From NCBI GenBank assembly GCA_016783355.1, contig JADHWR010000001.1, positions 6,072-70,071 of the forward strand: a DNA stretch of 64,000 nucleotides, given 5' to 3'. This DNA comes from Candidatus Omnitrophota bacterium (GTDB taxonomy: Bacteria; Omnitrophota; Gorgyraeia; Gygaellales; JAHJCI01). The notes under the pieces are model-generated. The model did not search any database. It saw only the letters and a list, made by a program, of their open reading frames with translations, and was not told the DNA's origin. The translations under genes and the position numbers were made by a program. Positions within the stretch are counted from its first letter, which is position 1. Every line of letters starts with the position of its first letter. This document shows, one piece after another, positions 39,283-40,428 of the stretch.

Positions 39283-40428
39283 TCAATCAGCAGTATCATA
39301 TCTATTCAGAAATTCTTTCTTAAATTCAACAAATCTATCCTCTTTGATTGCCTCTCTTATTTTTCGCATCAGCTCGAGATAGAAACAGATATTATGTAAA
39401 GACACAAGCCTCAGTCCAAGAATCTCATTACTGCAAAGTAAATGTCGAATATACGCACGAGAAAAATTTTGACAGCTATAACATGAACAGTCTTTATCCA
39501 AGGGAGAAAAATCGCAACTATAGGGGGCATTGCGAACAACTAGTTTTCCCTCACTAGTAAAAGCAGTTCCATTTCTGCCATAACGGGTAGGAATTACACA
39601 ATCAAACATATCTACGCCAATTTCTACTGCTTCTAAAATATCCTCTGGCATACCAACACCCATAAGATAACGCGCAGCATCTTTCGGTAAATTTTCAACA
39701 ATTTTATTTGTAATATTATAACTTAAACTTTTGGGTTCACCAACAGAAATCCCTCCAATAGCGTATCCATCAAAACCGATATCAACCAGTTGTCTTGCAC
39801 AATCCTTTCTTAAATCCTCGTAGGTTGAACCTTGCACAATCCCGAATAATAATTGCTTATCGCTTGCCCCGTTAGAAATATCATTTCTAACGGGGTTTGC
39901 GATTTGCGCCTTTGAGCATCTTGCCCAATCTAATGTCCTCTTCATAGCTTGCGCTGCATAATCCTTAGTGCAGGGATAATGTACGCACTCATCCAAAGGC
40001 ATCATAATATCTGAACCCAAAATCTTTTGGTATTCTATTATTGTCTTTGGAGTCAAAAAATATTTGTCTCCATTAATATGCGACTGGAACTCTACTCCTT
40101 CATTAGATACCTTACGCAACAGGGCAAGGCTAAAAATCTGATAACCGCCGCTATCGGTAAGTATGGGTCTGCGCCAGGATATAAAACGATGTAGCTGGCC
40201 TGCCTTTTTTATTATCTCTATGCCTGGCCGTAAAATGAGATGGTAAGTATTGGAAAGTAAAATTTGTGCCTCTGCTTCCTCTAACTCGCCGGGACTTAAG
40301 GTCTTCACGCTTCCCTGTGTACCTACAGGCATAAAGCAAGGAGTCTGGATATCGCCATGGGCTGTTGCGAGAACCCCCCGACGTGCTTTGCTTTTCTTGT
40401 CTTCATAAACTAATCTAAAGGGATTCAT
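39283..40428 (-). CDS. tgt: Queuine tRNA-ribosyltransferase with an in-frame family-1 mini-element
   Basis: A 381 aa ORF with Tgt TIM-barrel motifs (..LTDSGGYQ.. zinc site CSCYSC..). The segment [11 protein letters not shown] is encoded by the palindrome. Confidence 0.9.
39867..39895. mobile_element. Family-1 minimal element (29 bp perfect palindrome) in frame in tgt
   Basis: CCCCGTTAGAAAT-ATC-ATTTCTAACGGGG. Element plus 4 bp equals 33 bp, which is 11 codons. Confidence 0.7.

Follow-up and report, generated by a model that had tools for sequence, protein, structure and literature searches.

A 29-bp palindrome in the tgt gene of an Omnitrophota bacterium belongs to a family of hairpin elements that may be mobilised by a small GIY-YIG nuclease

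Results

The window examined here is a stretch of 64,000 nucleotides from a Candidatus Omnitrophota bacterium (contig JADHWR010000001.1), and our subject is a 29-bp palindrome within its tgt gene, which encodes queuine tRNA-ribosyltransferase. The palindrome is genuine: the smallest member of a family of mobile hairpin elements has inserted there in frame. We propose further, with a probability of roughly 0.6, that it is a minimal non-coding hairpin of the MITE type (miniature inverted-repeat transposable elements), that the only coding form of its family is a unit of ~279 bp with a GIY-YIG nuclease gene, and that this nuclease mobilises the family. A first-pass annotation, made from the letters of the window, had drawn attention to the palindrome; its observation is confirmed and its interpretation partly supported. 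It had missed the 279-bp coding member of the family at 32176-32454, which bears the candidate mobilising enzyme.

The tgt palindrome is an in-frame insertion in a variable loop

The palindrome, CCCCGTTAGAAATATCATTTCTAACGGGG, occupies 39867-39895, inside the interval 39861-39900 to which the first-pass annotation had assigned it, and consists of perfect 13+3+13 arms (CCCCGTTAGAAAT-ATC-ATTTCTAACGGGG). The earlier description of the element as essentially two terminal inverted repeats set back to back is accurate, since it comprises 13-bp arms and a 3-nt loop. The site is laid out as follows.

39283..40428, minus strand: host gene tgt, coding for a queuine tRNA-ribosyltransferase of 381 amino acids (aa); PF01702, E 3e-158; the insert is residues 177-187
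39863..39866, no strand: left flank copy CTTG, a 4-bp target-site duplication with one mismatch against the right copy
39867..39895, no strand: minimal element, 13-bp arm, 3-nt loop ATC, 13-bp arm
39896..39899, no strand: right flank copy TTTG, partner of CTTG

The element and one flank copy amount to 33 bp and add 11 codons, as had been claimed, with the reading frame kept; Tgt is otherwise full-length and intact around the insert by its match to Pfam PF01702. In alignment, solved bacterial Tgt proteins show a 9-residue gap precisely at the insert, and an Omnitrophota orthologue (P0006, 73% identical), which reads EQIA-K-SDKQ there, represents the empty site. The segment from WARRSK to QLLFGIVQG ranges from ~4 to >40 residues among 120 Omnitrophota Tgt orthologues (~70% identical), and the insert peptide was found at that position in none of the other 119 Tgt homologues compared. 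An AlphaFold (AF2) model of Tgt places the insert in a coil between a helix (155-177) and a strand (193-198), with a predicted local distance difference test score (pLDDT) below 50 at residues 182-189; the insert is thereby modelled as occupying a disordered, hypervariable surface loop.

As single-stranded DNA (ssDNA) the tgt site forms a hairpin with 14 bp in the stem and 3 nt in the loop (dG -17 kcal/mol, z = -9), and a perfect 13+3+13 palindrome has a calculated chance expectation of ~0.001 per 64 kb. The same allele, with an identical protein, is carried by three independent ENA assemblies and by an NCBI 'Candidatus Omnitrophica' metagenome-assembled genome (MAG). Its presence in three independent ENA assemblies shows that the palindrome is no assembly artefact.

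Palindromes of other kinds were observed in the same loop of other Omnitrophota. Two Tgt genes (L231 and L232) carry tandem-heptamer palindromes there (ATATCGC x3 ... GCGATAA x3 and CGGTTCT x3 ... CCGAACA x3), and in L233, the relative with the empty site, a mini-palindrome stands there (ATCGC-AAAAA-GCGAT). Palindrome growth has a hotspot in the Tgt loop, and the process behind it differs from that of the 29-bp family.

Seven elements of the family lie in the window

The repeat word was matched 16 times in the window at two or fewer mismatches, against 5.7 expected, and 0 of 100 shuffles reached 16. The matches resolve to seven elements, that is, 14 paired half-sites with a 13-bp terminal inverted repeat and 4-bp flank duplications; no solo repeat ends were found among the half-sites of the window. 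Six copies are non-coding and one, of 279 bp, is coding. Besides the tgt copy, they are:

16198..16226, no strand: 29-bp member flanked by CCTG/CCTG (16194-16197 and 16227-16230), in the 5' leader of the DJ-1/PfpI gene, directly upstream of the ribosome-binding site
26712..26779, no strand: 68-bp member flanked by TAAG/TAAG, in frame in coaE; the CoaE domain is split into 2 stretches
29608..29669, no strand: 62-bp member flanked by CCTG/CCTG, in frame in polA; translates agPVRSKTPGATAPPTAGTSNGag
32066..32171, no strand: 106-bp non-coding member flanked by TAAA/TAAA, intergenic; adjoins the 279-bp element, the middle TAAA being common to both
32176..32454, minus strand: 279-bp coding member flanked by TAAA/TAAA, intergenic; CCCCGTTCGAAAT ... 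ATTTCGAACGGGG
45216..45280, no strand: 65-bp member flanked by CTTG/TTTG, in frame in infB; translates pnPVRSKTPKVAAPAVRRGISNGar

All four in-gene copies (tgt, coaE, polA and infB) have a length that, with 4 added, is divisible by 3, and all four translate PVR...SNG. The first-pass annotation had named a second 29-mer, in the DJ-1/PfpI gene, with perfect CCTG duplications. The copy and its duplications are there, with one mismatch between the arms (CCCCGTTAGAAAC vs CCCCGTTAAAAAC), but its placement within the gene does not hold. The Pfam domain begins at residue 51 of the mechanically called open reading frame (ORF), which starts at TTG, and immediately beyond the element and its flank comes an AGGAGG-spaced ATG (MKKVVMII...). 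Because this start comes after the element, the element lies in the 5' leader, outside the coding sequence.

The family is widespread and duplicates exactly 4 bp of its target

A census was made in one scan of species-representative genomes with the pattern CCCCGTTNGAA-N(3-33)-TTCNAACGGGG, which covers one repeat subtype at lengths of 25-55 bp. As a lower bound it gave at least 119 loci (122 copies), against ~17 estimated by chance; the source genome was not among the loci returned. The figures that follow in this section hold among the matches listed. Hosts include Omnitrophota, many Patescibacteria lineages, Planctomycetota, Nitrospirota, Thermodesulfobacteriota (Desulfobacterota) and Syntrophaceae, and further Clostridia, Gammaproteobacteria, Elusimicrobia and one Aenigmatarchaeota MAG. 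Copy lengths have modes at 29 bp (26 of the 122 copies), 53 bp (17) and 33 bp (13), and the peak at 29 bp is sharp, with 3 copies at 28 bp and 6 at 30 bp. Other 29-bp copies are therefore common, and the objection foreseen by the first-pass annotation, that no others of this size exist, fails.

Exact 4-bp direct repeats flank 70 of the 122 copies and repeats with one mismatch a further 16, while a 5-bp flank match was found for just one. When flank pairings were shuffled, 11.8 exact repeats were obtained on average and 22 at most in 1000 shuffles. Nineteen different 4-mers are duplicated, with TTTA and TAAA dominant, and the target consensus is the loosely palindromic R|T-W-W-A|Y, the 4-bp target being YWWR. 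Insertions of the family duplicate exactly 4 bp of target, which bears out the earlier assignment of the tgt palindrome to a duplication-making family.

Within genes the insertions respect the reading frame: length plus 4 is divisible by 3 in 22 of 23 copies in long ORFs vs 53 of 106 elsewhere. Genes for SMC, ArsA, MiaB, GAPDH, an M28 peptidase and others are hosts of in-frame 29-mers. These 29-mers translate as PVRxxxSNG or PLExxFLTG, because the third frame meets TAG or TAA in the repeat.

The arms of the 29-mers pair at position 12 in 21 of 24 cases and at position 13 in 19 of 24, with TA/AT/CG/GC covariation, but at position 14 in only 10 of 24. The drop at position 14 defines a 13-bp stem with the smallest possible loop. 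Its consensus is [C/T]CCCGTTAGA[G/A]A[T/N], and the variable positions 1 and 13 covary between the arms. The aligned ends thus define what must be recognised, a 13-bp stem plus a 4-bp target (YWWR), and the first-pass proposal that the ends would reveal what the enzyme needs to recognise proved sound.

Three further candidates were rejected. Phage were set aside as a vector, IMG/VR holding 8 short copies but no nuclease relative. A preference for insertion into hairpin loops, prompted by the tgt site, was not found, flanks beyond the duplication being no more complementary than shuffled pairs. Finally, a 1706-bp candidate for a larger autonomous element (L028) proved to be two separate short copies.

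The coding member encodes a small GIY-YIG nuclease

The coding unit consists of a 13-bp inverted repeat, the gene of an 86-aa GIY-YIG nuclease and a second repeat.

32155..32433, minus strand: GIY-YIG nuclease ORF, 86 aa encoded inside the element; Pfam PF01541, E 3e-19

PF01541 is the sole domain of the 86-aa protein. The ORF has no stop inside the element; its final codons, F-R-T-G, are the repeat itself, and it reads through into the flank. Conserved catalytic-type residues are present at Y5, Y16, R26, H30, E50 and N54, which, by analogy with I-TevI, we take to be the GIY-YIG catalytic set, and the structure of the protein is modelled with a pLDDT of 88. By sequence, the nearest solved relatives are the UPF0213 proteins BH0048 (1ZG2, E 2e-11) and EF2693, with weak matches to Slx1 and I-TevI; the folds nearest to the model are, in order, 1ZG2, the Slx1 nuclease domains (7cq2/4xlg/6sei) and I-TevI. 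An NCBIfam search with the nuclease gave just a sub-threshold match to a group I intron endonuclease model, and a plasmid search gave only YazA-type UPF0213 genes. Relatives 70-80% identical occur in Omnitrophota, Moraniibacteriota, Portnoybacteria, Scalinduaceae and Dehalococcoidia.

Two of the three ENA assemblies, all from this population, show a run of N in place of the 279-bp copy (L001 14340-14440 and L003 14120-14220). The apparent absence of the copy there was rejected as a presence/absence polymorphism, the gap being an N run left by scaffolding; the assemblers could not resolve the stretch, as would fit a multi-copy sequence or strain heterogeneity. A separate observation concerns a Doudnabacteria MAG (L036) that also has a 29-mer identical to one in the window. 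At 6904-7155 it carries a nuclease relative of 48% identity inside a different, longer inverted repeat (CCCCGTAGAGAAATTTCGAAT...), which hints at several co-evolving pairs of enzyme and repeat.

Nuclease gene and repeat form one unit

The association of nuclease and repeat was surveyed in JGI metagenomes, where 587 of 600 candidate stretches encode a relative and 82 loci were examined. At 72 of these 82 loci (~88%) both repeats are present, 275-306 bp apart with a mode of 277-279 bp. The unbiased end profile from 69 unique copies is [C/T]CCCGTTAGAGA[T/A/C], and the repeat is exactly 13 bp long: positions 1 and 13 vary, yet 66 of the 69 copies have the same base there in both arms, and from position 14 onward the agreement falls away. 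Such covariation suggests either that the two ends base-pair or that one end is copied from the other.

The repeats are also built into the gene. Among 120 nuclease homologues, 82 terminate precisely at ...[S/F]LTG, residues that the right repeat encodes as CTAACGGGG; some gene calls begin M[N/S]PVRDNK, the translation of the left repeat. The start lies ~20 nt from the left repeat and the last four codons lie within the right repeat, the stop codon usually being supplied by a flank that begins TGA or TAA. Coding and non-coding copies are tied together in the window by repeat position 8. There, 8 of 13 half-sites have C, the two ends of the nuclease copy among them, vs 8 of 452 elsewhere (p = 3e-10); this C is thus a lineage-specific variant common to both kinds of copy.

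Many coding copies stand at ATGA[AG] stop/start overlaps of operon genes (L133/L174, L152, L197-L200, L205, L215, L220 and L110). At such junctions the left flank copy preserves the stop codon of the upstream gene, and the terminal A or G of the element, with the TG of the right flank copy, remakes the downstream ATG or GTG start; coding copies with T...A ends occur almost solely there. Elements were also found nested inside nuclease genes (P0140 and L114).

Two peculiarities of coding copies were observed in addition. The copy in L182 lies inside a perfect 10-bp flanking palindrome. Seven copies (L143, L145, L148, L165, L192, L203 and L206) have a common left flank, AATAGG[G/A]TTGGA, and unrelated right flanks, which suggests a subgroup with a longer left end or repeated insertion beside another repeat.

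A model of mobilisation and the points that weigh against it

In the mechanism that we propose, the two 13-bp ends would pair as a stem in ssDNA whatever the interior between them (3 to ~250 nt). The GIY-YIG nuclease of the element would recognise this stem and cut at its base, reinsertion would take place at a 4-nt staggered break in an R|TWWA|Y target, and host polymerase and ligase would finish the 4-bp duplication. Any derivative that keeps both arms would be a substrate, so that 29 bp (13+3+13) would be the smallest possible hairpin, and it would also be the least harmful insertion in a gene, at 11 codons.

Several points weigh against this proposal. GIY-YIG enzymes are hydrolytic nucleases for which we know of no strand-transfer or transposase activity. 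The cut ends known for GIY-YIG homing and restriction enzymes are 1-2-nt 3' overhangs, which would not lead one to expect a 4-bp duplication. Each exact nuclease protein looked up has a single genomic context, so that multi-copy spread of the coding form is not evident, and filled/empty site polymorphism was looked for and none was found. The published motif of the Ssn nucleases, discussed below, has no match anywhere in the window. Both 29-mers of the window have A at repeat position 8, and the resident nuclease copy has C. Direct 4-bp flanks, judged by eye, are present in just about one third of coding copies, and many coding copies (within L143-L222, e.g. L149, L151, L161, L164, L177 and L207) have a left TTTA and a right TGAA or TAAA in an inverted-like arrangement; the TTTA...TGAA flanks fit none of the models considered.

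A stronger claim, that the 86-aa nuclease is the sole element-encoded protein needed for 4-bp-duplicating transposition and the 279-bp unit hence an autonomous GIY-YIG transposon, is one we hold only tentatively and judge somewhat doubtful. If it is true, GIY-YIG enzymes would add a mechanistic class to the prokaryotic transposases, one whose substrate is a DNA stem that the two ends of the element form between them, and the ~279-bp unit would be, to our knowledge, the smallest autonomous DNA transposon. The 29-bp hairpin would then be its minimal substrate, seeding 11-codon insertions in essential genes of Omnitrophota, the candidate phyla radiation, Planctomycetota and others.

The question of how short palindromic repeats spread, and how they enter essential genes in frame, goes back to the description of the Rickettsia elements. 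In 2025, the Ssn work tied small GIY-YIG nucleases to hairpin repeats without an insertion signature (PMC11893778). The present family supplies such a signature: its ends are discrete and 13 bp long, it duplicates exactly 4 bp, its target is defined and its coding unit measures only ~279 bp. GIY-YIG-driven transposition thereby becomes testable with a 29-nt oligonucleotide and an 86-aa protein. For annotation, it matters that the elements add PVR...SNG peptides to conserved proteins of uncultured phyla.

Alternative explanations

The 29-mers could belong to the same family and still be remnants formed in place, a longer copy having inserted and its interior having been lost later. The loss could have come about through replication slippage promoted by the hairpin, or through nuclease cleavage just inside the repeats and subsequent rejoining, with both arms and the shortest loop remaining. 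We treat this as a possible but less than probable account. The 13+3+13 geometry is the product expected of collapse to a minimal loop, and at position 8 the two 29-mers of the window have the ancestral A, where the resident copies are C-type. The 29-mers have individual loops; the three identical pairs among the matches listed (window/L036, L071/L102 and L050/L116) compare with ~1 estimated by chance, and identical 29-mers were for that reason dropped as proof of mobility. Exact duplications flank 13 of 26 29-mers vs 38 of 54 copies >35 bp among the matches listed, which fits a greater age of the 29-mers, although the difference is not significant (estimated p ~0.08). On the other side, that lengths peak so sharply at 29 bp is also in keeping with a defined minimal substrate. 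Moreover, identical interiors recur at unrelated sites in different phyla for a 32-mer (L016, L040 and L112) and a 40-mer (L024 and L049), from which it follows that very short copies can spread as units. The first-pass view that the 29-mer is itself the smallest mobilisable unit was not established: no 29-mer is common to sites beyond chance, filled/empty polymorphism was not found, exact duplications are fewer and position 8 is A.

It is unlikely, in our estimation, that the family is mobilised in trans by a conventional transposase, such as a 4-bp-duplicating DDE enzyme, with the GIY-YIG gene a selfish passenger or homing-type gene in one MITE lineage. Inverted repeats, a duplication of fixed length and a target that is loosely palindromic together make up the textbook mark of DDE transposition, and the want of known transposase activity among GIY-YIG enzymes speaks for such a helper as well. 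Yet the search, which covered the window and ~0.9 Mb of flanks from >100 genomes rather than whole genomes, turned up no larger element with these ends (CCCCGTTAGA...) enclosing a gene. The nuclease ORF is built into the ends, with its stop from the flank, in ~88% of relatives across phyla; the covariation of the arms points to base-paired ends and not to two independent protein-binding sites; and a 29-bp duplex presumably cannot bend to pair its own ends in a transpososome. We give hardly any credence to a palindrome that is not mobile DNA at all, being a product of chance or a module of tgt, hairpin or peptide, that the host selects. Omnitrophota do have a palindrome hotspot in the Tgt loop and the empty-site relative already has a small palindrome there, but the same 13-bp ends and 4-bp duplications recur at >100 unrelated sites in many phyla, in and between genes. 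In addition, the calculated chance expectation in the window is minute, as given above, and the peptide is private to this Tgt among the homologues compared. Template switching, in which the flank travels along with the element, would account for the dominance of TAAA/TTTA but does not account for 19 different duplications.

Comparison with known systems

The closest published parallel is the Ssn system (Chenal et al. 2025, PMC11893778), in which single-domain GIY-YIG proteins of ~94 aa are encoded by genes flanked on both sides by the NTS/SRM hairpin repeat. Ssn binds the hairpin stem in ssDNA only, cuts 5' of the stem and accepts the stem as two half-oligonucleotides; its authors note a likeness to an insertion sequence and compare the system with REP/RAYT (PMC11893778). 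No target duplications are reported, NTS is rarely found in genes (2% in N. meningitidis 8013), and Rickettsia is counted among the SRM-rich genomes (PMC11893778). Like Ssn, the window protein is a small single-domain GIY-YIG nuclease (86 aa vs ~90 aa), with one repeat copy on either side of its gene, the two inverted to one another, and further copies scattered over the genome. For the Ssn clade the yardsticks are CDD cd10448 and a BLASTP match to N. meningitidis SsnA with E below 1e-10 and 75% coverage.

Sequence comparison was made with a reference set of Ssn proteins found via a proteobacterial consensus; on either side of them stand canonical CGTCATTCCCGCGCAGGCGGGAATCCAG repeats, which the published SRM expression recognises. 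BLASTP of the window nuclease against two NTS-flanked stand-ins (P0505 and P0455, in place of N. meningitidis SsnA) aligned 64 of the 86 aa at 41% identity, with a pairwise E of 5e-13, and hhalign against NTS-flanked Ssn proteins gave a probability of 97.6% with 40% identity over 65 columns, the core only. The C-terminal 20 residues of the window nuclease are unrelated, and the protein is about equally close to UPF0213 as to the Ssn stand-ins. The SRM motif HGTCWYN(0-2)YYVSBRHN(0-5)WNVSBRGN(0-2)RNCYNB had 0 matches in the window or in the 7 elements, and the same expression finds NTS beside the Ssn reference genes. Given core-only homology and an SRM motif without a match, the family is treated as a sister of Ssn with its own repeat and not as a member; by sequence the nuclease appears to be a sister both of the Ssn ssDNA hairpin nucleases and of UPF0213/Slx1. 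Two further differences stand out. Each NTS of Ssn is a complete hairpin, whereas here each end is a half-site and a hairpin arises only on pairing of the ends, and exact 4-bp duplications and frequent in-frame gene insertions mark the present family.

UPF0213 is the closest solved relative of the nuclease by sequence, and UPF0213 followed by Slx1 by fold. Slx1, which depends on Slx4 and has a RING domain besides, cleaves branched and stem-loop DNA. The UPF0213 proteins (YhbQ/YazA/BH0048) are, as far as we know, encoded by single chromosomal genes, have no assigned role and have not been reported with flanking repeats.

In REP/RAYT and IS200/IS605 systems a single-copy enzyme gene encodes an HUH Y1 transposase, the hairpin is recognised in ssDNA, no target duplication is made and REPs are extragenic. 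The present family resembles them in that inverted palindromic repeats, present in many copies in the genome, flank an enzyme gene, and differs from them in its GIY-YIG nuclease and 4-bp duplication. Classical MITEs (Correia/NEMIS, RUP and ERIC) are non-coding, usually of 100-400 bp, with inverted repeats and a fixed-length duplication, and derive from DDE or HUH insertion sequences. The small non-coding multi-copy members described here (25-106 bp) share the terminal inverted repeats and the fixed (4-bp) duplication. In contrast to classical MITEs, their coding partner with the same ends is only ~279 bp long and encodes a GIY-YIG nuclease, and derivatives go down to 25-29 bp. The Rickettsia palindromic elements (RPE), described in 2000 by Ogata et al., are reportedly of ~100-150 bp, confined to Rickettsia and located in frame in essential genes, to which they are said to add surface peptides; we know of no transposase for them. 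PMC1779305 also makes mention of RPE. The present elements are likewise palindromic repeats in frame in protein-coding genes (tgt, coaE, polA and infB; 22 of 23 ORF copies keep the frame), but differ in size range and host range.

In the literature searched, no description was found of this repeat family or of GIY-YIG-driven transposition in prokaryotes. Matches to the repeat sequence were primers or unrelated, and a 77-bp inverted repeat of P. gingivalis could not be linked to the family. In one groundwater study, the genes reported as transferred out of Patescibacteria include one for a GIY-YIG protein.

Other palindromes and genes of the window

TrmD (38378..39148, minus strand) carries an in-frame insert of ~35 residues, PEGPRAFSEKGRAYGASKGQRSLAKVGSRRSRG, at ~38800-38920, which splits its Pfam domain in two. 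The DNA of this insert forms GC-rich hairpins with CCCCG.../...CGGGG ends, unlike the 29-bp family, and probably represents a second family of in-frame palindromic elements. The trmD-tgt spacer (39177-39281) is a 105-bp imperfect palindrome, with 21-nt outer arms that are 90% complementary and additional inner arms, and its sequence is unrelated to the 29-bp family. Two adjacent copies of a hairpin, GCCCTGTACCATACGGTACAGGGC, lie at 55746-55795, and a separate hairpin with 18-bp arms lies at 63031-63069. At 4580-11980 (minus strand), between rpsL and rplL, a single ORF of 2466 aa contains all Rpb2 (beta) domains followed by all Rpb1 (beta') domains and is a fused rpoB-rpoC.

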